Source: Phoronis australis
Taxonomy: Eukaryota; Animalia; Phoronida
NCBI GenBank assembly: GCA_002633005.1
Contig: NMRA01000646.1
Location: forward strand, 1-64,000
Reading direction: 5' to 3'
Length of the DNA stretch: 64,000 nucleotides
The notes beneath the pieces are model-generated. The model ran no database searches, was not told the DNA's origin, and was given only the letters and a program-made list of their open reading frames with translations. The translations under genes were made by a program, and so were the position numbers. Positions 19,243-56,010 of this stretch are shown here, one piece after another. Position 1 is the stretch's first letter, and every line of letters starts with the position of its first letter.

Positions 19243-21805
19243 ATCATCGAGAATAAAGCAGGAAAAGTATTTGGCGAAAGATGATGACAGAATCCTGTTG
19301 GTCTTCGAATCCATGTTGTTGCAGTTATTATCATTTTTCATGACATGTAAACGGAAGGCAACAACCCAGCTGATCAAGTTTGTCGGCACCATGGTGGTGA
19401 TCCATCAGGTGTGCTCTCAGGCAAACTGCCCAGGTTACACTTGGTCCTCACAGCCGAGTATAGACCAGCTGCCTCTTGGGAACATTTTACTGGCGCTATC
19501 AATTCTTTGTGCTGGCAGTTCAGCATCAAAAACCCTGAGGGTTTTAAAATTCGTGGGGGTAAAGGCCTATCACTACTCAACGTTTTACCACCACCAAAAG
19601 ATGTACCTCACCGGGGCCATCATGAGAGTTTGGGAAACACAGTATGCCAAACTCCCGAGAACCCTGGGTGATGACATGCTTCAGGGGGGTGATGTTCATT
19701 GCGACAACCCAGGATACACAGCAAAATACGGCAGCTATACTTATATGGACTTAAAACCAAACAAGACTGTTGCCATGGAGCTGGTGCAGGCATTAAAAAT
19801 GACTTGTAAAAAAAACTTTACGTAAATTGTGCATGACCCGGGTTGGATTACTAATGTGTCTATTATCTTTGCACATGAATATATTTCCAAGGCAGGTGTT
19901 GTTTAGCTTAGTCAAAAGGGATCTGTGAACTTCCGAAATGAGACAAGCTACACACTTTAATTTTCATTAACTGTACTAAGACCAGGTGGAGTCAAGTGAG
20001 TAGAATTTTGGTGTACTCAAATCTCACAAATTGATTTATGGTATACTTAAGATGCAGAGTTTTTATACAAATGTATTCTTGCTTTGATATTGCATTGAGT
20101 GGTGTTCAAATGGTAATGTTTAGTCATTTCCTGTTGTTTGTGATCTTTCTTGATCAGTAACTAGAGACAATTTGTGGCATTGTAAGCTAACAGGTATCTG
20201 CTAGACCATTACGATAATTTTTACGCATAATTTAGGTGTGTTTTGTACAGTCTTTTAGGTAGTCTTATCAGGTGTCAATTTGTACTCATTTTTGGTTTTT
20301 GCTTCATTAATTTCAGAAAAATGGAAGTTGCAGGCTCCTACCACATGGAATTATGTTTCAAAAGGTGCCGACTGAAGCTGTTGGACCATGTGGCTCCTCA
20401 GAGTCTGACAATTGTGACAGATCATCACCCTTCCATTAATAAATGGATTGCAGATTACTGGGCTGTTGTCAACCACTTGTTTGATATTTGGCATATAGCT
20501 AAAGGTACAGTGGTATGCAAAAAGTTGCTGAAAATGCTTATCATTGAAGTTTGGCAAAGTTTTAGTGAATTCTCGTCACTTTGCGTCTAATTTTCTTTCA
20601 AGGTTTTTGTTCTAACTAAAGTATGCAGGCATGGTTCATCAACTGTTGTAGATAACAACTGGAATCGTTTTTATATGCGTGTTGCAGTAAATTAAAGTAA
20701 GGTGGCTTTGAGCATATGCTCTTGTTAGGAACGGAACTTGCCGATGTAAGAATTGCCTTCAATTTTGAAAAAGTGGGACTACACTAATGCTTTCACGGCA
20801 ACGCTACTCGCCTTGGGTAGTAGCATGTGATATTGAGAAGATTCTTGTTGCATTTCATTAATTTGTGATGGCACGTATGTTTCTAAGCTCTTGCATTGTT
20901 GTATTAATTTGTTGTACCTTCCTAGGTCTGCGTAAAAAACTGGCCCCGCTGAGCAAGAAGTATCCATCGGTGAAGAAGTGGGAAGACGCAATCATCAATC
21001 ATGTGTATAGGTGTGGCACAGAAAGTAAGGGTGATAATGTCCTTTGTCTAGAAATGTGGAAGAGCTTGGGAAACCACATCGTGAATATACACACGCATAA
21101 AGATAATAGTGTGTATACTGAGTGCGGGCATGGCCCCCTTCAACCTAGGGAATGGATGACTCCAGGTATGTAAGCGTTACTTTTGCCATGTTTTATACGG
21201 TGATATCTGAATGCTTTTGAGAATGAATGGCTTTGGTTTGCTGACGTTTGGAAATAGCAGAGTAGTGATCTTATTGACACTGCCAGCTTTGCCCACTTTA
21301 TACAAGATGTGCTTGGAAAACGAGGCGATTCCTGTTAGGTGTTGTTGCAATTCAGGTAATCAAAAGGGAGTTCGATATTCACTATTTGTCAATCTTGGGT
21401 GTTGCAAGAAGTTGACAGCCAGTTCTGTGTTTCTCCTGCTATTGCATAGCTACTGTTTCACTCTCACTCGTTCTTCTTTGTTGTACAAAGTCTCTAACTT
21501 TTTCGAAGGTTTGATGAAACCTCCATACTCGTAGTTACAGGCCTGTAATTGTGGCATGCGTTTTTTTCGTGTTATTGTTCACAAACTAGTGAGTTTATTA
21601 CTGTGATGATACAAGTAGTATTATTTATACAGGGACTGCTCAATATGAAGATTTAATGAAGGTGTTGGATAACAAGCTTTTGCGGGAAAGACATCTCCAG
21701 GCTTTCTCCCGTTGGCCAGACCGCATCCTTAGAAAGATTCCACTCCCTTGTGAACAAATTTGCTCCAAAAGTGAAGCATTTCGATTACTCGGGGATGAAT
21801 AGCAG
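19243..21805 (+). pseudogene. Spliced Kolobok/Mutator-like DDE transposase (exons about 19243-19788, 20317-20503, 20926-21165, 21632-21805)
   Basis: Motifs GGDVHCDNPGYTAKYGSYTYMD (first D), IVTDHHPSI (second D), HLFDIWHIAK, WKSLGNHIVNIH and QTASLERFHSLVNKFAPK (E). GT-AG introns are present, and there is a frameshift in the last exon. Confidence 0.8.
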
Positions 21806-22853
21806 GTTTCTGCCACAGTCATATGTCATAGGGATGGATAGTAGGACATCACTGCACCAAGGTAGTCTGGGAGATTCCAGTCTTAGTTGTAGCCTCAGCC
21901 TTCCCTAGTGGAAAGCTTCATTGAGCATCAGGGCCGTGGCAGATCATGCCTAGGGGATATATAGTAATGGACATACTTCGTTTGATAATTAGCTGACACT
22001 AAGACACCTGATTCGTTGATGGAGGGGACTGTTTTGTAAATAGTCATGAACATTACAGTAAAAATTTTTAAAAACTTTTCCATATGCTATATGGGCAATC
22101 ACCAATCCAATGGGATGCCCTCTATACTCTATAGAAACTTTACCAAGCTATTCCTACCCNNNNNNNNNNNNNNNNNNNNNNNNNNNNNNNNNNNNNNNNN
22201 NNNNNNNNNNNNNNNNNNNNNNNNNNNNNNNNNNNNNNNNNNNNNNNNNNNNNNNNNNNNNNNNNNNNNNNNNNNNNNNNNNNNNNNNNNNNNNNNNNNN
22301 NNNNNNNNNNNNNNNNNNNNNNNNNNNNNNNNNNNNNNNNNNNNNNNNNNNNNNNNNNNNNNNNNNNNNNNNNNNNNNNNNNNNNNNNNNNNNNNNNNNN
22401 NNNNNNNNNNNNNNNNNNNNNNNNNNNNNNNNNNNNNNNNNNNNNNNNNNNNNNNNGCTCCAAAAGTGAAGCATTTCGATTACTCGGGGATGAATAGCAG
22501 GTTTTTGCCACAGTCATATGTCATAGGGATGGATAGTAGGACTCACTGCACCAAGGTAGTCTGGGAGATTCCAGTCTTAGTTGTAGCCTCAGCCTTCCCT
22601 AGTGGAAAGCTTCATTGAGCATCAGGGCCGTGGCAGATCATGCCTAGGGGATATATAGTAATGGACATACTTCGTTTGATATTTAGCTGACACTAAGACA
22701 CCTGATTCATTGATGGAGGGGACTGTTTTGTAAATAGTCATGAACATTACAGTAAAAATTTTTAAAAACTTTTCCATAAGCTATATGGGCAATCACCGAT
22801 CCAATGGGATGCCCTCTATACTCTATAGAAACTTTACCAAGCTATTCCTACCC
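21762..22853 (+). repeat. ~400-bp near-identical direct duplication flanking a 297-N gap (likely assembly overlap)
   Basis: 21762-22159 recurs at 22457-22853 with a few substitutions. The gap is 22160-22456. Confidence 0.9.
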
Positions 22854-34565: not shown

Positions 34566-35360
34566 CTGTTCGAAGAAAAAGTTTGATAACACGAGTATTG
34601 TTCAAGTTGGTAGGAATTGAAGACATCTATGCGAAAAATGTACTTATAACAACGTGACTTTGATGTTTTATCACTGTGAAGCACAATTCGCCAAAAAGCT
34701 TCCAGCCTGTGGAGCTCCTATAGCATACGAGCTTCACCGCTTCTACTGGCCAGCTAGAGATGGTGGTCACTGTCTAGTCAGACAGTAGACAGTGACCACC
34801 CTCTCTGGCCCAGTAGAGATGGCGGAGCTCCATACGCCTGAAGCTTTTCGGCGAATTATGCCTCACACTGACTAAAACATCACGTTGTAATAAATACGTT
34901 TTGCACATAGAAGGACAACTTAGCAGGCCGTCAATGTATTTTAATCCTTCTAACTCAAAGAAATACTCCCATTATCAAACTTTTTCTTCGAGCAGTCCCT
35001 CTTTCACTTCCTGAATTCGGTAACTGGCCATTTTTACACTGCACTCGCCAGGGGATATGACATCATACCACCTGCCGTGCACAATGATAAAATGGTGAGT
35101 TACTGATTTTTGGAACTGAATGCGGGACTGCTAAAAGAAAAAGTTTAATAACGGGAGCATTTCTACGTGTTGGTATGGATTAAATACATTCAACGGCCTC
35201 CTAAGCCAGGTGTCCTCTTTGCACAAAAGATATTTATAACAACGGGATTTTGATGTTTTAGTCAGTGAGAGGCATAATTCGCTGAAGAGCTTCAGGCCTA
35301 TGAAGCTCCTATAGGAGCTCCGCCATCTCTACTGACTGGCCCAGCAAGAGACGGTGATCA
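34566..35360. repeat. Three-arm inverted repeat cluster (forward-reverse-forward, ~220-bp arms; MITE-derived)
   Basis: 34566-34778 folds onto 34786-34995 (centre gtggtcactgtcta..tagacagtgaccac). A third, forward copy lies at 35123-35360. Confidence 0.85.
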
Positions 35361-35445
35361 CACTCACAGTCACAGACTGACTCAAGTCAGACAGCGCACT
35401 GCGTCGTTGTGAAATCACCCTTCCAAGTCTTCGGTCACCACTCAC

Positions 35446-35672: not shown

Positions 35673-35805
35673 GTGAGTTGTGACTTGTTCTGATTTACTA
35701 CGTTGCACCTATTGTTGGCCAATGTGAAGATGTTCGTACTCGGTTCAATCTCATGTAACTCGCTTGTTTGATTTCAGATCAAGAAATGCAAAACATGGTC
35801 ATAAA

Positions 35806-38800
35806 ATGGCGCTGTGGATTCCAAGATCATTGAATCAAGAATGCCTGAAGCTGAAGACAGTCGTTCGATTAATTCGATCACCTGACCTGACCCGTACGAC
35901 AAGGTACTGCATAGCTGAAAATAGCTCTGTAATTCAAAGGAGAAACGTTTCAAAGTGTTCAAACAGTTTAGGTAGGCGTACTGTCAGTGTCATGTTGTCA
36001 AACTCTGCTGACATGAACTGGAGAGACCTAACCCTAAGCCATCAGACTAGGTTCTTAAGGTCTGCTTACGCGTCCAACCTCGTAGAACAATTGAACACCT
36101 ATGCCTGAGTGTCATTCTTTTGTTGAAATCTGAACATTTGCCTTTGTTTTATAATTTTTAGTGTTTGATAGTGGTCAGGTTTGCCAAATACGGGTTTCAT
36201 AAAATTGACTTCATTTTTATGAGCTTTTAATCGTTTTAACTCTCCGTTTGGCAGTCGTAAAAAATCAAATCGACTTTAGGAACACCGAGGCATGGTCTCT
36301 AAAAAGCCATGGAAAATGTTCAGATTACAACGCTGCAACTCGGGTACAGGAATTCACTTGGTCTACGAAGTTGGACAGTGTAAGCAGAGCAACTAAACTT
36401 ACTTGGTGTACGCACTGTACGGCAACCTCTATAATGCTCTTAATTTCACCGCTGAACCTATCATAAAGAGATGATGTTGGAATGAAATTGCAAATTCGTT
36501 TGCATCGTCCTATAAGCTTAGCAGCACATACATGTGTCACTGTTCTTTCACAAGACACAACATGTCATTATCAATTACAGTCAAGTGCAGTGTTTTCCCT
36601 CTGCACTATTACGGAGTTACTACTCTGATGCCATTGAAGAAGAGGTCAAGGAACTACCCAAAAGTGCCCGCGTAGTGATATGTGGCGGAGGGATCACTGG
36701 CTGTTCTGTGGCCTACCATCTGGCCGAGGCTGGCTGGACAGACACAGTGGTGTTAGAACAGGGAAGGTGAGGATGTCAGATTAATGTTTGATTATAGTAG
36801 AAATGTGGTGTGGTGTTTCAATAGTAGTCGGATGTACGTGCCCGCATTTTGAGAACCAGTTTACTCCGCTGAAACAAACTGGTTCACAAAACGTGGGCAA
36901 GTTATCTCTGACTATTGCTGATGTTTCGGGGAAGTTTGAAAACTTCGACTAGCTTTATCTTGCTGAGGTGATGACAACAGTATAGGTATTCATGTCAAAT
37001 AAGCATTGATGGGGAGGTCATCCTATGATCAGTATTTGTTTGATAGCCAAATTACTAACGCATTCAAACTTCAGCTTTGACAACATACTAGTACTTAAAT
37101 ATCAGTGTGTGCTAGCGTCATTCTGTCTGTCATTATTGACTGGTAGAGATTCTAAGATTAAGTTGAATTGAGTAAAAAAGTCAATAATAAGCCTGACTGT
37201 TTGCATTAGTTTTGGTATTTATTTGATGGAAACTATTCTGTTGCTATCTGATGACTTTTGACTCATAAAGGCAACGTAATGTTGAAAATCTGACTAGATG
37301 CATTGTGCACGATCTTGAATTTGTTGCATTCAAGTAGACGGAATGAATCCATGTGACCTGGGTTTAATCCACTGAGCATGGTTTTATATTGTCTACTTGA
37401 ATTCAGTAAACTCAAGATTGCATGCAATTGATCTTGCCAGATCTTCACCACTACTGTTTGAATGAAAGCCTGTAAACACAGTATATTAGTGCTAAAAGCC
37501 ATGTGCATTGGGCTCTTGTGACATTTGTGTGTGTGTTTTTTTTTGTTGTAATAATATCGTCTATGTTGTACATTGTGTGGTTTTGATTATATCTCTTCTA
37601 GAATTGCTAGTGGCTCCACCTGGCATTCAGCTGGCATTGTTAGCCAGCTCAAGACCAACTTAACTGAAAACACTCTGATCAGCCACAGTGTGGCGTTGTA
37701 CAACAAACTGCAGCGGGAAGGCAATGCCATAGGTAAACATTTTGTCTTCTGAGGTAGTCTTTTAATTAGAAAAACTGAAACTAATCAAAATGGTTCAGTT
37801 TTCACATTTCGATTTAGAAAAAAGGCATGCGTTTGTTATGATGACATTTCCATAATTTTTAGTGCCATTAGAGTTACCACAGACCTAACTGTGCTACAAA
37901 AATATACAACTTTGGAACGATTTGGATAAAAAACTAATGCAATAAAATGCAACACAAAGTTAATGTCCTTGGAAACTGCACTCTTCCTTGAACAAACTAA
38001 ATAGGTTATAGTATTAGAAAATAATGTTTTACCATTATTCTTGTGCTAAATTGAGATGACGAGCAGAATTACCCATTCGATGTATAATTTTGAGGTCTTT
38101 ATAAATTCTACACGCATCATTCCCTAGCTATATTTTGACACTAGTCTACATACAGCTAACTGAGCCTCTGTCAAAAAGTAACATTTCACTTTAGACTACT
38201 TTCCATTATTGGTCTCAACTTGTTCATTACGTGACTTAGGAGTGAAAGAACTGCCATTTTGTTAGACCGTGCATTAGGCGATTCTTGGTACAACAACTGG
38301 ATCTAACTGGATCTATCCGGTTGAGCATGTCAGTACATGCCGAGCCCTGAATTCGTTTCTATCCTGAGTAGAGTATTAAGTCGAGACCACTTTCATAGTG
38401 GTAATTAGTGTTTTAGTAAAAATAAATTCACAGAAAATGGCTTTGAATTACCAGGTTTAATTTACATTTTATTAAATTATTTTATTGTCTCTTTAAAGTC
38501 ATGACTATATCCCCAGTTTTTCAAGTGAATAAAGCTTGTTTTTAATGTCCAAATGTAAAGAATGTTTACCATGACTTTAGGCTGAATTGCCTTGTATATG
38601 TCACAGGATTGCATCTCTGGAACCAATTGAGACTTATGAACTTAGTTAGCCAAATGCATTTTTAATCCGCACATTTCATTGTCAAGCTTTCATTGTTTGT
38701 GTGACATGTATGGTATTTACTATTAAAATTGATGTACAAGAGTTGTGCATTATTAGAAAACTTTCACTAAACTTTCACCACCATTTTCTGAATTCATTGT

Positions 38801-41800
38801 TCCCTTGTTATAATACTGGTCATATTTCAGTGAGTGCATTTTGTCTTGCAGGTTGGAAGCAGTGTGGCAGTCTGAATTTAGCCCGAACCAAGGACAGACT
38901 GACCATGTTTAAACGATTGAACGCTGTTGGCAGGTACTGAGTGTGAAATTTCTGTTGATAACAAATAACATCTGTTGTAATAGTAGTCAGCTTACACATT
39001 GTTTAAATATCCATAGAAAAAAAATAACGCGCCAAACTTGGAAAAATCTCTTGTTTCAACAAAAAAGCACAATCATGTTGCTACAAACAGTAAGGCATTA
39101 TTTTCCTGCTCACTGTAGGTTTTTGTGATCATCGAGGATTTGAAAAATATATGATTTTATGGGATGACAAGTTTTATTTTTAAAAGATATTTTAAAAAGT
39201 GTGACCCTTGCTAGTGAAGATGTCCAATTACTTTAATATTAGAAAGGCTAAGCTACAAATTTGATTATGAAACTATTAAACTGTCATGGTGAAATACAGT
39301 GTCCCTGTCTGTCAATGCTTGATTTCATGTTGTGGCCCATTTGCTCTCTCTTTATTGGCAGTTGTGCACACGAATACTGTCACAGAAACCTTGAAAGACA
39401 TGTCTACCTTCACATCAAAACACAATTTCTAGCGAGACCACTTTTTAACATATTCTCACGTGAACACCCCATAAGAGCACGGCCTTCGTGTACTTAGAAC
39501 ATACCTTGAAATCTTACAGAGTCAGTAATATTGAGTGTCAGTTGATCACAGCAAGGGATACTCTGGAGAGGGCGCCATTGATCGAGTCTGCTGATATCCA
39601 GGTGAGTTAGAATGATGTGCTAGATCTTATTTGTGGACCCTCTTGTTTGAGTTGATATTTGAGTACTCAATCAAAACATACTCCAGGAATCATTGGTAAC
39701 AATATATCAACTCAAAACAGATATTTGTTTTCGTTTGTGCTTTTGGTCAAGCTCATGTATACGATTGTCTCTAGTGAAGTTTTCGTATATATAAAGTATA
39801 TATAATTTTATGTCATCGTGTTCGGTTCTCAGTGAATCCAACGTTGTGAAATATCCATGGATGAAAGAAATACTAGTTCATCTACACATCATCTTGACCT
39901 CTTGCTACAACATAATCAAGTGGAAAATGCTTTTCTTGATTTCTATAATTTTGTTTCTGAGTTCTGCATTGGTTGTTTGCTATTCAAAAACTTTCAATTT
40001 CTTTAATTTCAAAACGAAACAAAACTCGGCATCTACTAAACAAGGTTACGCCATGCTCGCATATTAAAAATATCTCTGTTAGCCAATAGGTAGAACAAAT
40101 ACTTACTTTCGAGCTGTTTATGGGAACTTTGCGTGGCTTTAAATCATAGTTGAAGTATAAAGTTGTTTTTGCAACTGAGACATATCTTGTCCATGTTCCA
40201 GGGCAGTCTGTGGATCCCAGGAGATGGCGTTGTCAACGCTAGTGGGCTCACACAAACTCTACAAAGACATGCACAGAATGCAGGTTGGCTTTTTAAACAC
40301 ATGTTTTGGATAAGATTTCTCTGTCAAGTGTTTTGTTTTCTTGCAATGTGCTGTGGATTAAAAGTTGGTGTTAGTAAATTATTAAAGTGAGTGGATACTT
40401 CAGGCACACCTGTCGTTATTTTTCACAGAATTGTCTCATTTCATTTAGATTTCAGCTTATATTGTAGTTATACTTACCGATTAAAATTGCTGTATTTTTG
40501 GTGCAACTTTAACCTATGATTTATTAGGTCATCCTTCATCGATATTATGGGTCCCTTTATTTCTCGACAGGTATTCAGTTTTTTGAGAAGTGTGAAGTTG
40601 AAGACGTGCTGACTGTTAATAGCAAGGTATCGGGTGTGAAGACCAACAGGGGTCACATCAAGTGTGAATACTTGGTTAATTGTGCTGGGCAGGTAAATAA
40701 TCTCGTTTCACTTGGTCACTCATAATAGCGTTATATTCTTTGTTTGGCCGTCAGTTTAAATTCTCCATACTTCATGGCCTCTGCATTATATAGACCATCT
40801 CTGACATTGAGCTTATTCTCAGGTTAGCTGAAGTACTAGCCCAGCCAAATTTCTGTTACCGATAGTGTGCCTGTGACCATTTAGACCTTTCCTTTTCCCT
40901 CACATACTTCACACTGGGCATAGCTAAAGTCTAGTTCTGTTAGACACAAAATAGCTTCTTTAACTATATTGAAATTATTGGCTATACAGTCAACTATGAG
41001 TTATTGGAGCTCAATAATATTAGCTTTCTGTAAATGTCAAGCCGCGTACAATGTCATCTTTACAACAATTTTTTTCTGGTCTATTTTACAGTTCTTAGGG
41101 CACGTTTACATTAATTTCTCTCAACTGCTCTATGGAATGAGTGGACTTATTGATTGACTGTCCCAAACAGGAAATCGATGGTTTTACAGTGACCTAATTA
41201 TCACAGTGTGGGACTTTAATACTGCTTTTATGTATGGTTGGTTACAGTGGGCTCGTCAGCTAGGTAAGCATAGCAAGCCATCGGTGCGGGTACCTCTACA
41301 TGCCTGTGAACACCAGTACGTGATCACCAAACCCATGGCTGGAGTGGACAGCACGANAGTTGGCAGTTGTGCATAATTAGAATACTTTCACTGAAAGCTT
41401 AAAAGTCGTGTCTACCTTCACATCAAAACACAATTTCTAGCTAGACCACTTTTTAACATAATTATTCTCATGTGAACACCCCATAACATCACATTCTTCG
41501 TGTACTCTCAACATACCTTGAAACCTTACAGAGTCAGTAATATTGATTGTCAGTTGGTCACAGCAAAGGATACTCTGGAGAGGGCGCCACTGATTGAGTC
41601 TGCTGATATCCAGGTGAGTTAGAATGATGTGCTATATCTTATTTGTGGACCCTCTTTTTGAATTGATAACTGAGTACTCAATTAAAACATACTCTAGGAA
41701 TCATTGGTAAGAATGTATCAACTCAAAGCATATTATTTGTTTTCGTTTGTGCTTTAAGTCAAGCTCATGTATACAATAGTCTCTAGTGAAGTTTTCGTAT

Positions 41801-44800
41801 GTACAAAAAATATGAAAATGTCATCGTGTTTGGTTCTCAGTGAATCCAATGTTGTGAAATATCCATGGATGAAAGAAATACAGTTCTTCTACTCGTCATC
41901 TTGACATGTCGGCACAACATAATCAAGTGGAAAATGCTTTTCTTGATTTCTATATGTTTCTGAGTTCTGCATTGGTTGTTTGCTATTCAAAAACTTTCAA
42001 TTTCTTTTCAAAACGAAACAAAACTCATCATCAACTAAACAAGGTTACGCCATGCACGCATATTAAAAATATCTCTGTTAGCCAATAAGTAGAACAGATA
42101 CTTACTTTCAAGCTGTTTATGGGAACTTTGCGTGGCTTTAAATCATAGTTGAAGGATAAAGTTGTTTTTGCAACTGAGACATATCTTGTTCATGTTCCAG
42201 GGCAGTCTGTGGATCCCAGGAGATGGCGTTGTCAATGCTAGTGGGCTCACACGAACTCTACAAAGACATGCACAGAATGCAGGTTGGCTTTTTATACGCA
42301 TGTTTTAGAAAGATTTTTTTCTGTCAAGTGTTTTGTTTTCTTGCAATGTTCTGTGGATTAAAAGTTGGTGTTAGTAAATTATTAAAGTGAGTGGTTACTT
42401 CAGGCACACCTGTCGTTATTTTTCACAGAATTGTCTCATTTCATTTAGATTTCAGCTTATATTGTAGTTATACTTACCGATTAAAATTGCTGTATTTTTG
42501 GTGCAACTTTAACCTATGATTTATTAGGTCATCCTTCATCGATATTATGGGTCCCTTTATTTCTCGACAGGTATTCAGTTTTTTGAGAAGTGTGAAGTTG
42601 AAGACGTGCTGACTGTTAATAGCAAGGTATCGGGTGTGAAGACCAACAGGGGTCACATCAAGTGTGAATACTTGGTTAATTGTGCTGGGCAGGTAAATAA
42701 TCTCGTTTCACTTGGTCACTCATAATAGCGTTATATTCTTTGTTTGGCCGTCAGTTTAAATTCTCCATACTTCATGGCCTCTGCATTATATAGACCATCT
42801 CTGACATTGAGCTTATTCTCAGGTTAGCTGAAGTACTAGCCCAGCCAAATTTCTGTTACCGATAGTGTGCCTGTGACCATTTAGACCTTTCCTTTTCCCT
42901 CACATACTTCACACTGGGCATAGCTAAAGTCTAGTTCTGTTAGACACAAAATAGCTTCTTTAACTATATTGAAATTATTGGCTATACAGTCAACAATGAG
43001 TTATTGGAGCTCAATAATATTAGCTTTCTGTAAATGTTAAGCCGCGTACAATGTCATCTTTACAACAATTTTTTTCTGGTCTATTTTACAGATCTTAGGG
43101 CACGTTTACATTAATTTCTCTCAACTGCTCTATGGAATGAGTAGACTTATTGATTGACTGTCCCAAACAGGAAATCGATGGTTTTACAGTGACCTAATTA
43201 TCACAGTGTGGGACTTTAATACTGCTTTTATGTATGGTTGATTACAGTGGGCTCGTCAGCTAGGTAAGCGTAGCAAGCCATCGGTGCGGGTACCTCTACA
43301 TGCCTGTGAACACCAGTACGTGATCACCAAACCCATGGCTGGAGTGGACAGCACGATGCCAGGTGGGTTGTCTGTGCTCTTGGTGGGCTTATTATCCAAC
43401 ACTGTGATACAGTGTTCACAGCATGTGGGCTAACATCATGCATTGGATCAGTTAGGCAACAAACAGTATTTTCAAAAACATTTTATAGTTCCTTGTACGC
43501 CACTTTATAATATCTGCATAGTGTCATTGCATCCAGCGGTGTTATTACATAATCACAAAATTGCACACAGACGGCTCCATCAAACCAAAACTGGCAAATA
43601 ATCAGTTGTTCTTTTGTAGTCAACTTCTTACAACATAGTGGTAGTGCTGAGTATTTCCAAAAATAGGTCCACTCAAAAGTACCCCCATGGAGGTATTTTT
43701 GGAAAATCTTCCTAAAGTAATTGTTTGCATGTTTTAAACATTTTATGGATTGCTTTGAAATACATATATGATATGTTTTGATGTAATTTTTTTTTTTGAT
43801 TTTGGCAAGACATTGTATTTCGGAATCGAGATTTCACAGACAGTTATCAAGGGATGGGGTGGCTTTGTTAGTAACTAAACCATATTTCTTATTTTGAAAA
43901 CAGCCTTTAGTAAATAATTACTGGTATTTTTTTTCTTTAAAACTGTATTTTGAGAGTTTCTGAAAGTATGCCCGGGTATATATTCGATTTTATGTGACGT
44001 TTTTGAAAGGTCATTCTCCAAATATCCGTCAATGGGCTTATTTCCGTAAGTTTCCGGCGTAATTTTGTGTCAGTTTTGACTATTACTTTGTAGTTCACAA
44101 AGAAAATAGCAAGCCATGCTGTGCAGTTATTAGCCTTCAAAACCTTTGTACTGCGTACATGCGATGCTACTTAACATAGTGTACACTTGTTACAATCCTG
44201 CACCTTCTATCCTCGCTTATTGTCCACAGTTATCCGAGACTATGATGGACGCGTCCATATCCGAGAGTACGGTGGAGGACTGCTGGTGGGGGGCTTCGAG
44301 CAGGTAGCCAAACCTGTCTTCCACGATTACGTACCATCCAACCTTGAGTTCACAACACTCCCTGAAGATTGGGATCAGTTCCGTACGTGATCTTACCACA
44401 CACAGTAGTGACAGCAAATCTCAGTGTCTACTAGGTGGCGCTAGTGACAAAAATACATTTTACTATGAGTATTAAATGGAGAGACATTGATATTCTAAAA
44501 TTTTTTTTTTATTGTATGAGTAATGAAAGAAGTGTGTAGGACTGTTGTTTCACTCGTGCCTCTTATTAATTTACCAGCTCTTCATTGCAGAACTTAATAG
44601 GTTGTCCCAAAAAAATTACTCCCACTTTAGTTCATTGCTGGGCATTCAAATTCAGCTCCTGTGAATCAGACTCTGCCCTCGGGCCTACTGTAAGGTTAAG
44701 CTCTGTTGTGAAAGAAGGCGCGTGAGCCAAGAATGGTTACCAAATTACTTAGTTTTGAAGAACAAAGTTTAAACATTTATTGTGCAGTGCTACTGGAAAC

Positions 44801-47800
44801 TCAGAAATGCCAAGTAAGTGCCGAGACAATTTAAAAGATATTTTCACAATGCATTTATTTTGGTTTATAAACTATAAGACTAAATTCCTTTTTTGATCGT
44901 CTCTATGAATTTAGTCCAGTAACCGTGCTCCTGTGTCAATAAACAATGCAGTTATTGTTTTTTAGTTTTAGTACATTTTTGGGACATCCCTTATGTTTTG
45001 TGGGTAGGTTTTAAAGCCGCGAGAAATCATTTTTAAAGTGTATTAGACGTTATAAACATTTATGTAACATTGCTGTAGTCGTCATTGTCTAGAATAAACT
45101 GTAAGTAGCTTAAAGATAAGTTGGTTAGTTAAAACTCAGTATAATATTGTTTTAGAAGTTTCTATTCATGGTTCATTTTTAGATTTGTTCACTTCTTTAT
45201 TGTTATTAATAGATCTAATTAAAAAACTCCTATGGTCTCTGTCACCCTTTTGTTACAGAGGTGCTGCTTGAGCAAGCTCTGCTGAGGATACCCTCTCTGA
45301 GACAAGCACAGGTTCACGCTTTTATCAATGCCTCAGAGAGTTTTACACCTGATGGAAAAATGATATTTGGCAGGTGTCCAGAGGTACGTTCTTGCCGATA
45401 TTTGGGTATTTCAATAGACAATATTCAAGTGACAGTGTAATATCTTGTCTACCTAAAATGACGTTTTGCAAACTTTTGATTTGTTGCATTACAGTACACC
45501 CCCATTTTGGTTCATATGAGTTCATATCAGGCTGATGATAAATTATCGTCATTCATGGCATCGTTCATCGAAAACCGCTGCTAATTGTTTATCATTTCTA
45601 TGTGATAAGAAATCATTACCACAATCAAAGATAGACCTTTGATGAAAAATAATATCACCAGACTATAAACTGTTATCAACCATTTTTATCATAGTAAGTG
45701 TAGTCGCGTAATTTGACCAATAGTGAATCAAATAAACACAGAAAAATCAGGAATCCCAACTGGGAGTCGAACCACAGGTCTCTAGATTGCCATGGTTCAA
45801 TTTCTAGTTAGGGTTCCTGATTTTTATCGTGTATTTCATTCACTATTGGCCAACCTCAGCAGATATCTAATTTACAAACACTGGTAAATTGCTGATCATG
45901 TATAATTGTCGAAATCTCGTGTGAAAAAAGAGTAATGACACTCATGGAATGGATGGCAAAACAGTTGGCTTCAAACAGTAACTACACAGATATTGGATCA
46001 ATATGATCTGAAACACGGGAAATTGAGTGGAAACATACAAAGAAGTACACAGTATGAGTAAAACCCTGTGTTCAGTGTCACATCTGAGGACTGTTTTGGC
46101 CCACATTAGCCATATCCATTCATCCCTGTATTATCATGATGTTACGACACACACAGACCGTCTGATAACTTGGTCTGACGGGGCCCAAAACTGGTAATTT
46201 TTAATACCATTAATTTTTGTGTGCTGCTGTATTGCTTTAATGCAATGCCTGCACTTTTTTAATTAATTGTGTTTTAAAGTTGCAGTAAACCTAACATTTG
46301 ATTTGGTCTATTTACAGAAATAAAACTAAACTAAGCTCGTTCATTATCTCGTATCAGTTTAGTTCTGTAGCAGCCCTTCATTCATTTGACACAAACTTGA
46401 TTGAAGACAGCTCTGTACTTTCTGAGCAACTGCACATCAAACTGTCCAACAGAGAGCACTGTTGTGTTTTTAATCAAGTTTATCTCATTAATAGGAGATT
46501 TCTGGGCTTGGAAATACAGTTGGTTATTGCTTGAGACAACGCTCAATAATCTTGTTTGTAACAACAGTACAGGCTGTGTACCGAGCATGGCCATAAATTC
46601 CATGTTTTACTGAGTAATGAACGAAATCTTGAGTCCAAAGCTTAGTTTCTTTAAGGGAAGGCAGATCTATAGCATCTTCAAATAAGAACAAAATAACAAA
46701 TTTTTAAAAAAGGTTTCACCTGGAAATTTTTAGCATGTCACAGGAGTTGTTTATAAGATCTTAGTGTTTGTGTCAAAATTATGATGTGAGGCTCTGCTTG
46801 AAATCATGAATACCAGGTGGAGAACTACTTTGTCGCCGCCGGAATGCACTGTAATGGAATCTCGACCGCAGGAGGTGTTGGTCAGAGAATGGCCGAACTG
46901 TTGGTCAACGGAAAACCCGGTGTGGAACTGTGGTGTTTAGATGTTAGACGGTTTGTGGAAACAAACAACAACAAGAAATATCTGAAAGAACGCGTGACAG
47001 ATTCGTCAGGTAAACACAGCTGTGTCGTCCCTAAACCAATGAAAGCATTTGGACTGAAACTGTAAACGAGAGAAAACGTTTCTCTGAGCGAATTCACGGT
47101 CATTTTCACAGTCCATTTCTTAAAAGAAGTCGCATGTTATTTGGACAACATTTAACCTAATCTTGCACATACCTCAACTAAACCACTTACTAACCTGGTC
47201 TATCCACCTATTGATCTGCCAATATATATCATACAGGACTGTGTGCAGTTTCCTCATATATACTGCTCATCACTTCAGTCTTAACTGCGGTCAGTTTTCC
47301 TAAATAATTTGCACGTTTGCTTAATATGTTAGTAATATTGCCACTAGTGTTCCAAATGCTTTCCTTGGTCTCAAACCTGTTTACTTTGCCGTAGTTCATT
47401 TTAATTAATGTCTACCGCATAAATTTAGGTCAAGAACTATTTTACTGCGGCTGGAATGTGCGGCAGTGGTGTGACGGTTGCTGGGGGCGTCGGTCAACAG
47501 ATCGCCGAACTGATCATACATGTACTGCCCAGTGTGTGCATTTGGCCAATTGATATACGTCGATTTGTTGATTTACATAACAACAGCAAGTACTTGAAAG
47601 AGCGTGTACGAGAAACTCTAGGTATTGAGCCAACTCGCTTTTGGGCTTTCTGTTGCTTTGAACCATGCGTTTCCCCCGGCTTATTTTGACTGCATGGCTG
47701 TTTTGCTGTTTTCAAAGATGGGTGACTGTGCTTGTATTTTGGTATGCATACAAAGTGGTCATTTTTCATTTCAAGGCATCTGCTGTTCTGTTAGTTGGTA

Positions 47801-50800
47801 TCACTGGTTGTTTTTTGCCTTCTATGTAATATGTAACAAGTGTTCTAAGATGTACATCTACAATAAATTTCAAATAGCTTCCTTGCATCATTTCCTGGTA
47901 ACTTTTGGGAAACTTTTACAATGTCAGATCAATTTACTACGCAGAGTCAGTAACCTCTGTTGCATCTAATAGGGATCTCCGTGAACTTCGCATTGAGCAT
48001 TGTACACTGTAGGAACACCTTTTGTCTTCATGATAAGACCTGTCTGTGATGTCCCGGAGGAATTTTGCCCCAAGTGAGTTGCCTCCCATAAGCTAGATGG
48101 CAGCACTAGTCATCAGAACCATAAGATCAGTAGCCGTGCTTCATAAAAGTCTCCCATCAGCCACAATGGTTTTTTGGGTGTCTGGGGAACCAATAATCAG
48201 TTCTTTCTCCCAGAACCAGTCAGGTGCACTGTTGTGCTTTGGAGAAAACCATCTTTCAGTAGAATACAGATAAGGGGCTACTGTTCCAGTGTGACACTTG
48301 ATGTTCACTAGGTGTCGCTAATGGACAAATGCTCTTCCTTTTTCCATCTAGTACATGGAGAACAGAACAATATTTATCTGCATGGGGGTTCAGGTAGGGT
48401 AAGATTACCTGAATTCATGCCTTCATGCAAATAGGACAGTTGTCTAGACAAACACTGACATCTTGTTAGTTTCAAGCTGCTCACTACCGTGATTATATCA
48501 GTCAGTTGATATTATCTGCTGCGCCAGCTTACAAGTGCATCACATGGCTTCGGGTGTCATAACTTGTAACTTTGGCTGTCGGTCCTGTGTGCATGGAACT
48601 CTCATAGTAATACTGGTAATGGTCCAAATCATTTTGTATTTAAAATAATGTATAATAACGTAGAAAATAAATCTAAAACTAAATAAGGTGATCCAGATCC
48701 TCCCAAGGATACTATTGTTTCACGAAATGTATAGGTAAATTGTCATATAGTGTTTGATTTTACTTTATTTCTGTTTCTGTTGACAAAGGACGTTATTATT
48801 CCGAAAATTTCAGTTGATCCATTCTTGTTGTTTTATTTGCCTATTTATAAATAATGTATAATAATGAAAATTTTGGACATTGTTAGCTAAAACAAAAATG
48901 TTGTACTTGACTCGAGTGTTGCATACAGAAATGCTCGCAGTTTGAATTTTTGGTAAACTGAAACGATTAAATCAGAGTACACAGGAACAAGAAATTATTA
49001 TGTAATGTACAAATTATGCCATTTTGATTGTTCATTTTTGACAGTACCTGGTAATGACACGTAGTAAAATGTTGCGTAGTTATATTCAAAGTAAATAGTA
49101 AAGCTATTTTTACCTTGTTTACCTTGTCTCATAATAATCCTTACTTTGAGAGGATTCTATTTCCGTTATTGTGGCCTACTAGACTGGATGAAATGCCACT
49201 TTAATTGTATGCTATGCAATGGTGTAATAGAGAAAATAATGGTGCTATAATAAAAAAGATGCAAAGCAAATGACAAATTAACTTACATGACATTGCCCAT
49301 AAAATACCCTTGTAGGCAAACTTTTTCAAAAAAAAACAAAAAAACAGTGCAGGTGGTCTGATGTCATTTGCGGTGCATCAGCCGTGCGCAGGCCTCAAAA
49401 GCTGGATAAACGTTTCTTGGGTATCACAAATTAACAACGCGTTAACATACATGTTGACTTCAGCAACATAGTGGCACCAAATGTCAAATGTTATGTCGTA
49501 ACAGCCGTTCATCCTTAACTATTAGTTAAATTTGTGTTTATAATATAGAGCATTTAATCAATGGTTCTTATTTTGTTTTATTCTTTTAATCAGACCGTAA
49601 GACCTTGATACCTTGGAATAATTGTTACAGCTAAAAAACTCCATCAAATTTGGTGACAGTCCATGTAAAAGTTAGTTTTAAATGACGTACAGGTAAAGCA
49701 TGGGTCTATTTCACTGTTGTAAGTTGGGTCGACACATTCTGAGACATAAGAACACATTTTGGTTAGGTATGAACATAGGCCCCAGTGGAAGTTGACTTTT
49801 TTCTTCATCAATAACAACTATGGTACATCGTGAGAGGTTACGGTATCAACATCATGTCTCAGATTTTGTTGACTAAGTTGATATTCTAGTATGTGTATTC
49901 TGGTTTGTGTATTTGTAGCTTATGTCAATGCTAGTACACAAGCCTTTGGCAGGCTGTATCACATCGCATGGCAACTGTAATGGCTGGTACATGCTGCTTG
50001 AAACAAAAGTATTAGATAAGTTCTTAGTTTGTGAAGTTGTGTATTAACTTTGAGTGGTCTTCAAATGCACTGTATAGTCTTGTCTATGAAACCCAGTTTT
50101 TAAGAAGATTGTGTTTAATTTTGTCCCATCGCAATAACTGTTATTGATAACTTGAAACAATATGTCTTGGGGATCGTCAGTTTTTGGTAAAACTTTCAGG
50201 ACTTCCAGCAATGATTAACTATCCAGATATGGAACTGAACTCTTCTCGTAAACTGAGGACTTCACCACTCTACACCAGGCTTGAGAGTCATAGTGCTGTC
50301 TTTGGTCAGAGTATGGGCTTTGAGAGGGCTCTCTATTTCAAGGAGGCTCATAATGGTAACATAAGTTTGATGTAATATGGTGTGAAATTACATTCGAGAT
50401 ATTTGTGATGTTCCAGCTTTTAGAAATGTGTTCACAGCTGAATTATTGTGTCTGGATAGCCCGCTCAATGTAAAACAATGGTTTGTCAGTGTGATGGGCA
50501 GAAAAATATGAAAAGACAAACTAAAAATATTTATGCACTATTTCGTTCTCCTTTATCAGTCGTATTGGGTGTTACCACTTCACGGTCTGCTTTGGTTGAT
50601 GTTTTGTTTTGTTATGTTATTCTACGGTGAATTAGGAAAGTGCTAGTAAATTATAAATAGCCAAGGACAATAAACAAACCTTATTATGTTCTAGGTCGAA
50701 AAGTTGAGGAGTAAATTTAAAATAATTTGTAACGTATGAGTCTTGATATGTCATGCCCATCATACCAGACATTTATTGCTGCTAATCTTTCTCTCTCCCT

Positions 50801-51757
50801 CTCTCTGTCTTGGCTGTAGATGACTACTTCCATGTTGAAGAGGCACCGATGAACAGCTTCAGTAAACCCCATTGGTTTGACTATGTGGGTCAGGAGTACT
50901 GGGCATGCAGAGACGGTGTTTGTATGATTGATATGTCCTCATTTTCAAAAATAGATCTGAAGGTGAGACTTCTTAAAGAAAGGCGTTCATAGATCATTTG
51001 CAATAGGTGAAGCATTCTGCAAACCTGCCTTTGTTCATCACATGGGCGGTGCACCCATGGATCATGAAATATTGATTTAGATTTCTGTCCGGTGGTCTCA
51101 ATTCGCTCTTAGCTCAGATGAAGAATGATTCTTCAGGTATGGTAGAATTGATTTTGAGTGACGGCTTAACTGACCATTTAATAGAACTCAGAGACACCTT
51201 CGTTTCCAAGCCACCATTTTACCCGACAAACAGCACGTTGCCTGGTAAAACTTATTGTTTGTTAGTCGACATTACGCAAGGGGGCGGAGCTTGCGATAGG
51301 TCAATTGTCAGGTCTGTAGTACTTGAGACCATTGTCAGCACAGCAATCCACACGCTGTGATGAGCCATCTTATCGACCCTGATCTCGAGCAATAACGATC
51401 TGTCATCGCATGAATTGACCCTTGTTCAAGTTAGGAGCAAGTTAAGATCAGGGGCTCATTCCAGAAAACTGACTTAGCTGAGACAAATCTTAAACTTATG
51501 TCAAATTTAAGATAGCTTTTAAGTCAAAGTTTGAAGATTGAGACAAAGTTGGTTTCTTGGAACAGGCCCTGATTTATGGTATCAAGGGTTCTCAATAAAA
51601 AGTTTTTATTTTAACGAAGTCTGCTTAATGAACGTTTAAGTTATGTTATGTTATAAATAATTACATCTTAATATTTCTTTTGTCATTTGTACAGAAGTAA
51701 TTGCCTCCTTATATATTTACCTTGTGAACCTATGTATGGCCTTTATTACAGAAGTAA

Positions 51758-51788
<31 letters not shown>

Positions 51789-54700
51789 TATTGATTTATA
51801 TTTACCTTTTAAAGAGTTGTGACTCATTAAAATCTATCTAACCTAGAAAATGGAATGTGTATTTTAGGCTCCTCAATTTTTTTATTATTTACTGAACATC
51901 CATGTTGGTTAATAAAGTTGGTTTCTACCTGTAGTCGGCCGACAACGAAGTAGTAAACTTCCTACAATACCTGTGTTCAAATGACGTTGATCAACCAATC
52001 GGCACTGTGATACACACAGGGATGCAGAACAGTCATGGAGGATATGAAAATGATTGTAGTGTCATCCGCCTGGAGCAGTACCAGTAAGTGGTATTCAAGT
52101 TTCCTTTGGTGCTTTTTCATACTTATTCTGGGCTTGTATATTCACTGATCAACGAGGGGTAATAAAACACTTGTCAGGTCGTAAACCTAAATTAGTTAAG
52201 CTGTGTTTGCTTACAAAGGCCAACTGGGACAGTGTATACCAAGAGCAGACTTCACAAAGAACTGCTTTCAATTGGTGAAAGTACAAAAGAAAACTTAATA
52301 CTGGACTTACATTGCACTGAACTTTTATGTTAATTTCATAAAGACTATTGTGTGAAAACAAAAAATTCTGCTAATAGGTGACCTTTGCACTAATGATGTA
52401 CCCGCAGCATGCAGTGTCATTCCTTAACACCACATCATGATACTCAGTGGATACGATTGAGTGATTTACGGTGGATCATTTCTGACACAAAACTCGTTCT
52501 TAAAAACATTTGGCAATTTTCAATATACTTCATGTTCACATCGTGGCTATATGTTGTGTTTCTAACTAAGTTGACTAAGAAATCACTGAGATAAGGATTT
52601 AGGGTGCAAGTTCCACTTTCAGCATTCCGGTGTCCTTTGTCAGGTTTTGCGACTCACAGACCAATTATCTAACACAGTTCAAAGAATTGTTGAACCAAAG
52701 AGAATTACCTTCGTCGACAGATAACAAAGAACGGAAACCTAATACATCTGCTTTGGCTAATTATCAATTTTCTTCGGGGATAAATGATCCTAACCTAACT
52801 TTTTTATGAGGAATACAATTTCAGAAGCCAAACATTGCAAAAATCACCAGGTGTAGCCCACAATGTATATTAGTTTATTTTAGTTTTATTGCTGTGATGC
52901 TTATGCACCATTAGCTATTCTCTGTTCCGTTTGTTTCCATAGTTACCTGATGATCTCACCCACGGCCCAGCAAACACGTTGCCTGCACTGGTTAGCTCGT
53001 CACCAGCCAGTCAACAGCTCTGTTCTCATCAGTAACGTCACCTCAATGTATACAGTAATCAACCTGATTGGCCCACGTGCTCGTGAACTATTGGCAGAGC
53101 TCAGCGACGTGTCCACAAAGGCATTTGACTTTCCACAGATGACGTGTCAGGTAAACTTTTACTAATTATTGTGTTATGGTAAATCTTAGGTTGAAGTTGT
53201 ATTGTCATGGTTTTAACCTATTGAAACGTGTCTGCAAATGTGCTCAAACTCCCGTAGATTACCAAAAAGTCTCATTCGGATGTCTGGATGATTAGACTAC
53301 TCAGTTCTTTTACCACATCCTAGGGTGTATCTTAAAAATGGGCAGAAGTTTTCGAAGCCTGAGGTGTTGACTCTGCCTTCTCCTTCAGTGTAGGTGGCGC
53401 TGTAGGTTATATGTCAGTCATCTAGAATGTGACATGTTATTGAGTATAGTTATATAATGGGTTGTGAATGGTAGATCTTTGATTCCTAATTATTAATTTC
53501 TTTTATTAATGGTGACGTGGTCTTGCTGCTCTTTTTTCTCTGTATTGATCATATGGATTTGGAGTTATTTCCCTTGCTCAGCCTATGTAATATCTGAAAC
53601 AGTGAAAGACAGTTTTTAATTGTTTTTATTAATTTATTCTTTTTAGAGGTACTTTTGAATTTCATAATTACCTTTGTAGCATGGTCCCCATTATATGTAC
53701 TACAATGGTCTGCTCAGCTGCTTGAGTTTTAGTCATGTTCCAAATGTCAAGTCTTTAATGTGTTTATAAATACTTTTTTGAGATGCAGAAGACAGAAAGT
53801 ATGTTGTTGGGCTCCACCTTCAGTGTATGTTTGCTGTTGGGTGCCACCTTCAGTGTATGTTTGCTGTTGGGCGCCACCTTCAGTGTATGTTTGCTGTGGT
53901 GCGCTACCTTCAGTATGTTTCACGATTGCTGTTTCCCCTTCATTTTTCGTTTTACATGATTTTCTTACAGACCATCAATGTTGGAAATGCCAGTGGTATA
54001 TTAGCCATGAGATTGTCTCACACAGGCGAAGATGGCTTCAGTCTCTTTGTACCATCTGAGGTGAGTTTGTGATAAATTTGTCTTCCTGCCCTGTTACCTG
54101 GATTTTTTCAAACAATTGTTTAGTATTTTGCATATTGGCTGATACACCTATGCTTCACAATAGGTGCAGTCAGGTATCCCCTGTGCATATTGGGCATTTT
54201 TGATATTGCCCGTTAGTTCTTGCTCAGGTATTTGTATAGATGCAAATGGGCTTGAATACATGCATTTGAAGACATTGCTTCTTAAATTTTGCTCAAAGGT
54301 TTCACATACTGGGGAATTCACCTAGAACCTAGGTACAGTTTCACATATAGACACATGCCTCTAAGTAGCAGCGTATGGAATAAATTAGAATACTGCTGGT
54401 AGTCATTTTTGGGCTTTGAGGAGGACAACTAGTATGCATAGTGGTTTAGAATTTTGCAGGCAGTTGTAAATCATGGGTGTTGCTCTCACACAATAGACCT
54501 TTTGAAATTGACATGCATGGTCAGTGAAAGTAGTTCTTTGTGAATCCTGTTCATAGTCATACAGCTGTCCCAGTTGGACTGTGTAAGTAAAAATAGCTGA
54601 GCAAAGGGTTTGTGATAATAGTTGATGAGACACTTGTTTTATTATCCCCTATGCATTCTGAATAGATGAGCCCGTAATGGTTGTGCATCTCAGCGTTATT

Positions 54701-56010
54701 TCCATTTTGCACCCTACTGGGTATTTTGGCATGTAAACCAGTCTTTAGTGACAGACATTTTGTCTTTAACAGTACGCCCTGCACGTGTATGACGCCTTGA
54801 TGTTTGCTGGTCAGGATTATGGAATACAGAATGCTGGGTACTACGCACTGCGAAGTTTACGACTAGAAAAGTTCTTTGCCTTCTGGGGTCAGGATCTGAC
54901 CGCATTCACCAACCCCTTCGAATGTCAGAGAGAGTTCAGAGTTAAACTAAACGTGAGGACTTTTAATTTCATTATTTTTACTAGTTTTGTAAAACATTAT
55001 TCAGATTTTGCTCACAAGTTAAGAATGCTGAAGTACCTCCATCTAGTTGTATTTCAAGAGCGGTATCACAATTCAATTGGTTTTGATGAATGGTCTTTAA
55101 TTTAACCCACTGTATGGCAGATGAGTGGAATCGATGAATGCAGACGATTTTTACTTCATCATTTTCATGACTTAATAGTATTGCTCTTCCGGTAATGAGT
55201 AAAGCGACAAAAGCTGTAGCTTAATTGCAAGGCAGAACGCCAGTGGAACGACCCAGCATCAAGTACAGTGGTCAGATAGGTGTATGGTCGGGGCTTGGAA
55301 TTTCCTCTTTTAAGAGGATTTCTTCTTTTTTGGTTTTGATTTCCTCTTATTTGATTTCCAGTTTCCTCTTTTTGTCCCTTTTTTATCATTTAATTGTAAA
55401 AACCTAAGTTTGTTTTTGTTAAATTTTACAGCACAAAAAAGATATTTGTATCACACAAGCCTATTTATATGTGGAACAATATATCGCCTGGGAAATTTTC
55501 CTCTTTTTTGTCATTGGACATTCCAAGCTCTGATGGTGACATTGTTTACTACATATTTTTTCATCAAGTGGTGCTGTGTAGTACTCTTGACTATTGGTGG
55601 TTTGATTGTAGTCTGATATCGACTTTATTGGCAAAGAGGCCCTGCGCAAGATACAGAGACAAGGTGGTGTGGAGAAGAAATTCGTCCAGGTTTTTGTTGA
55701 CCCTAAAAAGATTCAGGGCGAGTCATGGCCATGGGGTGGAGAGCCCATTTATCGTAACGGCAAATACAGTGGCATGACAACATCTGGCTCGTACGGTTAT
55801 GGACTGCACTCCCATGTGTGTCTGGGATATGTTTTTGATCTGGACGAGACAAGTGGGAAAACAAATCTTATTAATAATGATTTTGTTATGGAGAATGCTG
55901 AGTATCAGATCGACGTTGCTGGAACCCGATACCCCTGTCAAGTAGGACTGTATGCACCCAAGACAGGTTCATCTGTGCATGACATTTTTGTGCCAGCTAG
56001 AATGGTTTAA
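35806..56010 (+). CDS. PDPR: Pyruvate dehydrogenase phosphatase regulatory subunit, mitochondrial (GcvT/FAD-dependent oxidoreductase family)
   Basis: Exons: 35806-35903 (putative transit peptide; start and first junction uncertain), 36581-36766 (VVICGGGITG, Rossmann), 37602-37732, 38852-38933, 41532-41613, 42201-42282, 42571-42692, 43248-43362 (duplicate set 39520-41356), 44230-44382, 45259-45383, [46817-47009 or 47429-47621], 50200-50355, 50820-50962, 51935-52083, 52943-53150, 53971-54060, 54773-54952, 55612-56010. PDPR-type motifs are KPHWFDYVGQEYWACR, LQYLCSNDVD..GGYENDCS and WPWGGEPIYRNG. Confidence 0.92.
36821..36920. repeat. ~100-bp palindromic MITE (related copy at 61938-62044)
   Basis: gtgcccgcattttgagaaccagttt..aaactggttcacaaaacgtgggca; the same structure occurs in a DENND11 intron. 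Confidence 0.7.
39355..43356 (+). repeat. ~2-kb tandem duplication of four PDPR exons, joined at a single N (41357)
   Basis: 39355-41356 corresponds to 41360-43356. Copy 1 breaks off inside its fourth exon at the N. Confidence 0.92.
44598..44993. mobile_element. Tc1/mariner-type MITE
   Basis: Termini aggttgtcccaaaaaaattact ... agtacatttttgggacatccct with TA-like flanks. Confidence 0.6.
45713..45853. repeat. Foldback hairpin built from two inverted tRNA-like B-box halves
   Basis: ccaatagtgaat..aaaaatcaggaa.cc.aact versus agtt.gg.ttcctgattttt..attcactattgg. GGTTCGACTCC lies on - and GGTTCAATTTC on +. Confidence 0.7.
46817..47009 (+). CDS. PDPR: PDPR alternative exon A (mutually exclusive)
   Basis: cag|GTG...TCA G|gtaaac, 193 nt, phase 0 to 1. 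Encodes VENYFVAAGMHCNGISTAGGVGQRMAELLVNGKPGVELWCLDVRRFVETNNNKKYLKERVTDSS. Confidence 0.88.
47008..47386 (+). promoter_or_regulatory. Candidate intronic RNA stem controlling exon A/B choice
   Basis: 47035-47053 accaatgaaagcatttgga is complementary (18/19) to 47351-47369 tccaaatgctttccttggt. The outer helix pairs 47008-47016 aggtaaaca (the donor) with 47378-47386 tgtttactt. Confidence 0.65.
47429..47621 (+). CDS. PDPR: PDPR alternative exon B (mutually exclusive)
   Basis: tag|GTC...CTA G|gtattg, 193 nt, phase 0 to 1. Encodes VKNYFTAAGMCGSGVTVAGGVGQQIAELIIHVLPSVCIWPIDIRRFVDLHNNSKYLKERVRETL. Confidence 0.88.
51449..51571. mobile_element. Short MITE (GGGGC...GCCC termini)
   Basis: caggggctcattccagaaaac ... 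gtttcttggaacaggccctg; a related end occurs near 60958. Confidence 0.45.
51762..51797. repeat. (ATTG)n microsatellite
   Basis: Visible attgattgattg run. Confidence 0.9.
53798..53920. repeat. 30-bp minisatellite, ~4 copies, just upstream of a PDPR acceptor
   Basis: agtgtatgtttgctgttgggcgccaccttc units. Confidence 0.92.

Follow-up and report, generated by a model that had tools for sequence, protein, structure and literature searches.

Does the PDPR gene of Phoronis australis encode a single protein, or does it exchange part of its flavin domain between two alternative exons? The question was raised by an original prediction, made from the letters of a 64,000-nucleotide stretch (contig NMRA01000646.1, positions 1 to 64,000; hereafter the window), that this gene carries two paralogous exons of which exactly one enters each message. 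Our analysis indicates, with a probability of about 0.7, that exon 11 has been duplicated in tandem, that both copies (11A and 11B) are spliced to exon 12, and that two proteins of equal length are likely made which differ around the predicted flavin pocket. The exon pair is real and expressed, and it is probably mutually exclusive; since both exons are spliced and the reading frame tolerates only one of them, the gene likely makes two proteins. The features on which this reading is built are the following, exon numbers being counts of coding exons in the window gene.

36585..56010, plus strand: PDPR coding region, frame-checked (orthologue tiling and in-silico splicing)
near 35800-35905, plus strand: possible short first coding exon (read by eye)
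45259..45383, plus strand: constitutive exon 10, upstream of the pair (joint 44382>45259 in RNA sets X1, X3 and X4; frame check)
46817..47009, plus strand: alternative coding exon 11A, 193 nt, phase 0 to 1 (AG/GT; RNA joint 47009>50200)
47429..47621, plus strand: alternative coding exon 11B, 193 nt, phase 0 to 1 (AG/GT; RNA joints 47621>50200 and 45383>47429)
50200..50355, plus strand: constitutive exon 12, downstream, 156 nt, single here and doubled in several relatives (RNA joints, exon profile)

A PDPR orthologue is encoded on the plus strand from about 36.6 to 56.0 kb of the window, and its predicted identity is borne out by several lines of evidence. The named best hits of a conserved exon are vertebrate and invertebrate PDPR, full-length PDPR orthologues tile the region exon by exon, and the Pfam domains of the protein follow the order DAO, FAO_M, GCV_T. 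A quick tree of 39 rows places the protein among lophotrochozoans other than molluscs, together with Lingula, two nemerteans and annelids (support 96); this tree is without SARDH or DMGDH rows, and the assignment to PDPR rests on the named best hits. The protein is fast-evolving in its own lineage (end branch 0.74 in this tree), and as its best identity to any orthologue is 55%, the comparison set holds no close relative. By best hits, tree and identical domain order, the window gene is the orthologue of mammalian PDPr, described in PMC6606986 and PMC12146199 as the regulatory subunit of PDP1.

11A and 11B lie side by side, are homologous, agree in length and phase and have intact splice sites, which is the make-up of mutually exclusive tandem exons. 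Their predicted coordinates, length, AG/GT sites, phase and open frames were all reproduced, together with the identity of 35 of 64 residues without indel. At the nucleotide level 117 of 193 positions are identical (39, 51 and 26 of 64 at codon positions 1, 2 and 3), and tblastn of one exon against the other gave E 2e-22. By contrast, blastn of the window against itself (E 1e-5) found no mutual match for the two exons or their flanks, and such divergence argues that the pair is not an assembly copy. In-silico splicing from 36585 yielded 863 aa with 11A alone and likewise with 11B alone, while with both included the frame closes at aa 463, 994 nt short of the last junction, and with both skipped at aa 362, more than 900 nt short of it, as expected from the predicted need for exactly one exon. 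One exon would be picked per transcript, and messages with both or neither would presumably be removed by nonsense-mediated decay.

Use of the two exons was followed in three raw-read runs (X1-X3, about 18-19% of each) and one contig set (X4) carrying the same species label, mapped onto positions 44150-51050 of the window, where joints were listed only if supported by at least three reads in one run or by a contig. The joint from 11A to exon 12 (47009>50200) had eight reads with seven distinct starts in X1, three reads with three starts in X2 and none in X3; the joint from 11B to exon 12 (47621>50200) had four reads (four starts) in X1, none in X2 and eight (six starts) in X3. Summed over the three runs, 11 reads splice 11A and 12 reads splice 11B to exon 12. 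Exon 10 was joined to 11B (45383>47429) by two reads in X3 and one X4 contig. Thus, among the junctions proposed as a check, those from both exons to exon 12 and from exon 10 to 11B were seen, while the exon 10-to-11A joint, like the 11A-to-11B joint, was not among the 15 of 24 joints listed; because these two are judged from that set, we infer strict exclusivity in part. No joint skipping both exons was among the same 15 of 24. The ratio of 11A to 11B differs between the three runs (small counts; the exact p is 0.0009 for reads and 0.009 for distinct starts), and so the two-isoform use foreseen for this gene agrees with both the presence of both exons in spliced RNA and their switching from run to run; the ratio would vary by sample, as far as three runs of low depth can tell. 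Depth rescaled from bins was 12 upstream, 7-9 in 11A, 4 in 11B and 15 downstream in X1, and 3.4, 3.1-3.7, 0 and 6.3, respectively, in X2. These depths fit 11A plus 11B roughly matching the flanks in X1 and 11A alone in X2, the X3 bins being confounded by intronic reads. Intronic coverage upstream of 11A was low, about 0.1-1.9x, in all three runs.

What the pair encodes agrees with its predicted placement at the C-terminal end of the DAO flavin domain. By Pfam, exon 11 reaches from the last part of the DAO domain halfway into FAO_M, and in the Owenia orthologue as modelled by AlphaFold (pLDDT 86), a model used in place of the window isoforms, it comprises a strand (388-392), a short loop, a helix (397-415), a linker and two more helices. 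The Owenia model superposes on human DMGDH with a TM of 0.83, and DMGDH and dimethylglycine oxidase (PDB 5L46, 1PJ5) appear from such modelling to have the same two-domain fold as PDPR at about 29% identity. The Gly-rich loop that precedes the last helix of the flavin domain is where the exon 11 profile lines up with DMGDH, L-proline dehydrogenase and sarcosine oxidase. The match of this profile to monomeric sarcosine oxidase 334-377 is weak (E 0.08) and spans an equal number of positions; there, exon positions 12, 13 and 16 align with residues 344, 345 and 348, which we take to be substrate- and flavin-contacting. Single-exon searches of the PDB gave no match, nor did a word search with 11B among longer proteins. 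At exon position 12 all 33 orthologues have Ser or Thr, 11A has Cys and 11B has Gly; loop position 11 is variable (His in 4 and Cys in 3 of the 33). The two exons differ at 29 residues over their whole length, some of them outside the loop.

The loop contrast proposed at first, MHCNGIST in 11A versus MCGSGVTV in 11B, stood only in part. The loop does differ, but differences also occur elsewhere, and the contrast is weakened by the reads of the 11B loop, in which the motif Cys of the assembly is Ser in 3/3 reads of X1, 8/8 of X3 and the X4 contig; four residues further on, Val is replaced by Leu in X1 and X3. Overall, reads and assembly disagree at 13 listed exonic sites, and 7 of these disagreements alter an amino acid; the two loop differences in 11B fit loose constraint there. 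The isoforms would differ in a strand, loop and helices that are predicted to close the flavin pocket, and by analogy with ACOX1a/b the likely effect would be an altered pocket ligand or flavin behaviour with the fold unchanged. The ideas of PDP1 regulation and of tuning by tissue or oxygen state draw only on mammalian PDPr, by analogy, and may or may not extend to this gene.

The window protein keeps the equivalents of the FAD-linking DMGDH His91 and of His225; His91 links FAD according to PMC5082570. The His91 equivalent is also kept by most invertebrate rows but is missing in three vertebrate PDPR rows. Where dimethylglycine oxidase has its catalytic Tyr259, the window protein has His and the other animal rows have Tyr. 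By the criteria of DMGDH- and DMGO-type enzymes, the linking His and the dyad His are thus present and the dyad Tyr is replaced by His, and catalytic activity would still seem possible since the linking His and His225 are kept. The Tyr259-equivalent site lies in exon 9 (44230-44382), where the reads differ from the assembly at both neighbouring residues at the amino-acid level.

The duplication was predicted to be old and to have left both copies under purifying selection, and the substitution pattern points the same way. Between 11A and 11B, pS was 0.71 and pN 0.29 (Fisher p 1e-6), a pairwise ratio that by itself is no proof of present-day constraint on both copies. Among 33 animal orthologues, seven columns are invariant, of which 11B keeps 7/7 and 11A 6/7, and each exon departs from the orthologues at seven columns that are at least 75% conserved. 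Neither copy looks dead, judging from these residues. In an exon tree of 37 rows and 64 columns the two exons are sisters (support 94/82, a grouping that is not starred) on long branches (0.54 and 0.41 versus a median of 0.24), and they have six rare residues in common; against 20 lophotrochozoan-side orthologues, 11A averages 31/64 identical residues and 11B 34/64. The duplication is probably lineage-specific, and it seems old, with an age suggested by silent sites near saturation.

The search for a conserved pair in related genomes gave none in those sampled, the nearest orthologue being 55% identical. A second exon 11 copy was absent from 46 of 46 fragmented PDPR loci (of 80 metagenome loci), in 18 of which exon 11 forms a separate exon with both neighbours on the contig, many of the animals being near-identical. 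Nor was an exon 11 swap found in the 20 protein groups compared, which include only about eight species with several isoform records, or in the vertebrate proteins screened, each with one match. When 50%-cluster representatives were searched with 11A, the best of 687 matches was 60% identical, and no close relative was among the 150 listed. Within the window itself, a profile scan found no duplicated exon besides 11A/11B and a 2-kb repeat described below.

Other PDPR exons are swapped or duplicated in lophotrochozoans. According to database gene models, Lingula isoforms X1/X2 differ at 114-147, within exon 3 (104-147), Lineus isoforms X1/X2 at 259-291, within exon 8 (258-297), and Lineus isoform X3 and Tubulanus isoforms X1/X2 in exon 12. 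Genomic DNA of metagenome locus L008 holds two 131-nt AG/GT copies of exon 3 (171-301 and 1214-1344). A key His is removed in two of these swaps, the flavin-linking His being Leu in one L008 exon 3 copy and the dyad His being missing in Lineus X2. Exon 12 occurs in two tandem copies on annelid-like host contigs (L001 2923-3549, L008 5420-6256 and L016 6447-8516), with splice sites resolved except for the first-copy donors and the L016 second-copy acceptor. Corresponding exon 12 copies group across species, L001 with L008 (96 and 97) and Tubulanus X2 with Lineus X1 (90), a tree compatible with one duplication or with separate annelid-like and nemertean ones. As exon 12 has a length that is a multiple of three, the frame does not force exclusivity there. 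All exons swapped or duplicated in other lophotrochozoan PDPRs (3, 8 and 12) lie in or next to the flavin domain, and the folate-binding half of the relatives compared showed no swap of this kind. Argopecten X1/X2 was rejected as a single-exon swap because its 25 differences are scattered over residues 18-206; the isoforms of Haliotis rubra and the micro-variants of Littorina were likewise not counted, and double exon 12 matches in L041-L043 were read as split-exon overlaps.

The phoronid pair would be one instance of a wider pattern in which exons of the flavin half of lophotrochozoan PDPR are duplicated repeatedly. Four duplicated exons in one half of one metabolic gene, spread over several phyla, suggest repeated selection for multiple PDPR forms, and this recurrence would be a clear example of convergent evolution through exon swaps. 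PDPR copies under neighbouring accessions and with scattered differences were also observed in Pecten (P0331/P0455), Mytilus coruscus (P0462/P0463), Ptychodera (P0403/P0471), Branchiostoma (P0473/P0475) and Haliotis (P0439/P0445/P0446), which suggests tandem whole-gene duplicates, though they may be haplotype artefacts. Very tentatively, and with odds clearly against it, we raise a broader proposal: that lophotrochozoan PDPR is flavoenzyme-like rather than just a passive phosphatase regulator, with a pocket repeatedly diversified by swaps of exons 3, 8, 11 and 12 in separate lineages, and that in molluscs, hemichordates and amphioxus whole-gene copies next to each other seem to be used. If this were true, the isoform pairs would be natural probes of the role of FAD in PDPR.

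Three other explanations of the pair have to be weighed against two exclusive isoforms. That 11A/11B is an assembly or haplotype artefact is highly improbable: the same gene does contain a 95%-identical tandem duplicate of 2 kb joined at an N, but 11A and 11B are only 61% identical with unrelated flanks, and in X1, a single RNA run, both are joined to one and the same exon 12. Somewhat less remote, though still quite unlikely, is the idea that 11A serves mainly as an alternative first or intron-retaining exon joined to exon 12, giving a truncated product. It would account for the lack of an exon 10-to-11A joint among those listed and for the intronic depth at 46229-46690, and some vertebrate isoform records (P0152, P0157) start inside exon 11. 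Comparable intronic depth is, however, seen in other introns of the region, the in-phase AG acceptor of 11A is kept, nine of its first ten codons match the orthologue consensus, and X1 has 11 exon 10 reads without an exon 10-to-11B joint, which are probably spliced elsewhere.

Harder to set aside, yet unlikely as well, is that the exons are exclusive but functionally interchangeable, a near-neutral duplicate whose differences stem from relaxed constraint. The long branches of both copies, the polymorphism of the 11B loop, the variability of loop columns in orthologues and the fast evolution of the whole protein in this lineage (end branch 0.74) would all follow from it. Interchangeable copies would, on the other hand, hardly be expected to persist until silent sites are near saturation or to be used in a sample-dependent way, and analogous duplicates have repeatedly been kept in other phyla, some of them common to distant species. 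The reading as two proteins differing around the predicted flavin pocket remains the preferred one.

The closest parallel is human ACOX1a/b, in which a duplicated exon 3 changes substrate preference, as described in PMC9741552 and PMC11178532. Like the PDPR pair, it concerns a FAD protein in which tandem exons are swapped to give equal-size isoforms, with a similar share of identical residues between the exchanged exons (28/55 in ACOX1, 35/64 in PDPR). It differs in that ACOX1 has another fold and compartment, its pair is kept from fish to human whereas the exon 11 pair has been seen in one lineage, its swap keeps all five predicted FAD residues whereas the pocket loop itself differs in PDPR, and its isoforms have biochemically shown differences in tissue and substrate preference, the PDPR pair being known from sequence and RNA. 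PKM, PFKP and KHK also swap homologous exons adjoining a ligand site in a metabolic protein, but those are vertebrate swaps with known effects (PMC9741552). The main text of that paper, on duplicated exon substitutions, has no mention of PDPR, DMGDH or SARDH. For PDPR, no description of mutually exclusive or duplicated exons was found among the papers listed, outside subscription papers and supplements, where a colorectal cancer paper that came up was unrelated; this accords with the original prediction, which knew of no such case. The mechanism is thus known and ordinary, being ACOX1-like, and its occurrence in PDPR is apparently undescribed, the isoforms of relatives being already in public annotation. 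As the role of the PDPR flavin is poorly understood according to PMC12146199, equal-length natural isoforms differing only around the predicted flavin pocket would offer a direct comparison for that role.

How the choice between 11A and 11B is made may involve the intron between them, which is 419 nt long and contains an inverted repeat.

47035..47053, plus strand: 5' arm of an inverted repeat of 19 nt between 11A and 11B (repeat scan, folding)
47351..47369, plus strand: 3' arm of this repeat, complementary to the first at 18/19 positions and lying 59 nt ahead of the 11B acceptor (repeat scan, folding)

The stem has -24.7 kcal/mol (folding z -3.4), and its length of 19 nt was reached by 0/100 shuffles and 1/152 native tiles, 17 nt being reached by four tiles. 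A role in splicing is possible, as is an origin as a transposon relic. The best alternative partners of the two arms, which were the ones scanned, reached -9 to -15 kcal/mol; with no strong competing partner for these arms, control by a docking-site and selector RNA system is unsupported. A hairpin upstream of 11A was not significant (z -1.5, 8/100 shuffles as good). Frame shift and nonsense-mediated decay would be enough in principle for exclusivity, according to PMC6071210.

Several repeats lie elsewhere in the window. A 2-kb tandem duplicate (39355-41356 and 41360-43356), 95% identical including introns and joined at a single N (41357), repeats exons 5-8, with no donor for exon 8 of the first copy; it is probably two haplotypes assembled in tandem and could yield false gene models. 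A 398-nt repeat of 98.5% identity (21762-22159 and 22457-22853) flanks an N gap and is likely an assembly overlap. Intronic repeats at 45713-45853, 48650-48850 and 49232-49462, the first two hairpin-like, carry read piles on both strands and are probably small transposons, and long imperfect inverted repeats at 34626-35361 and 37276-37454 are MITE-like.
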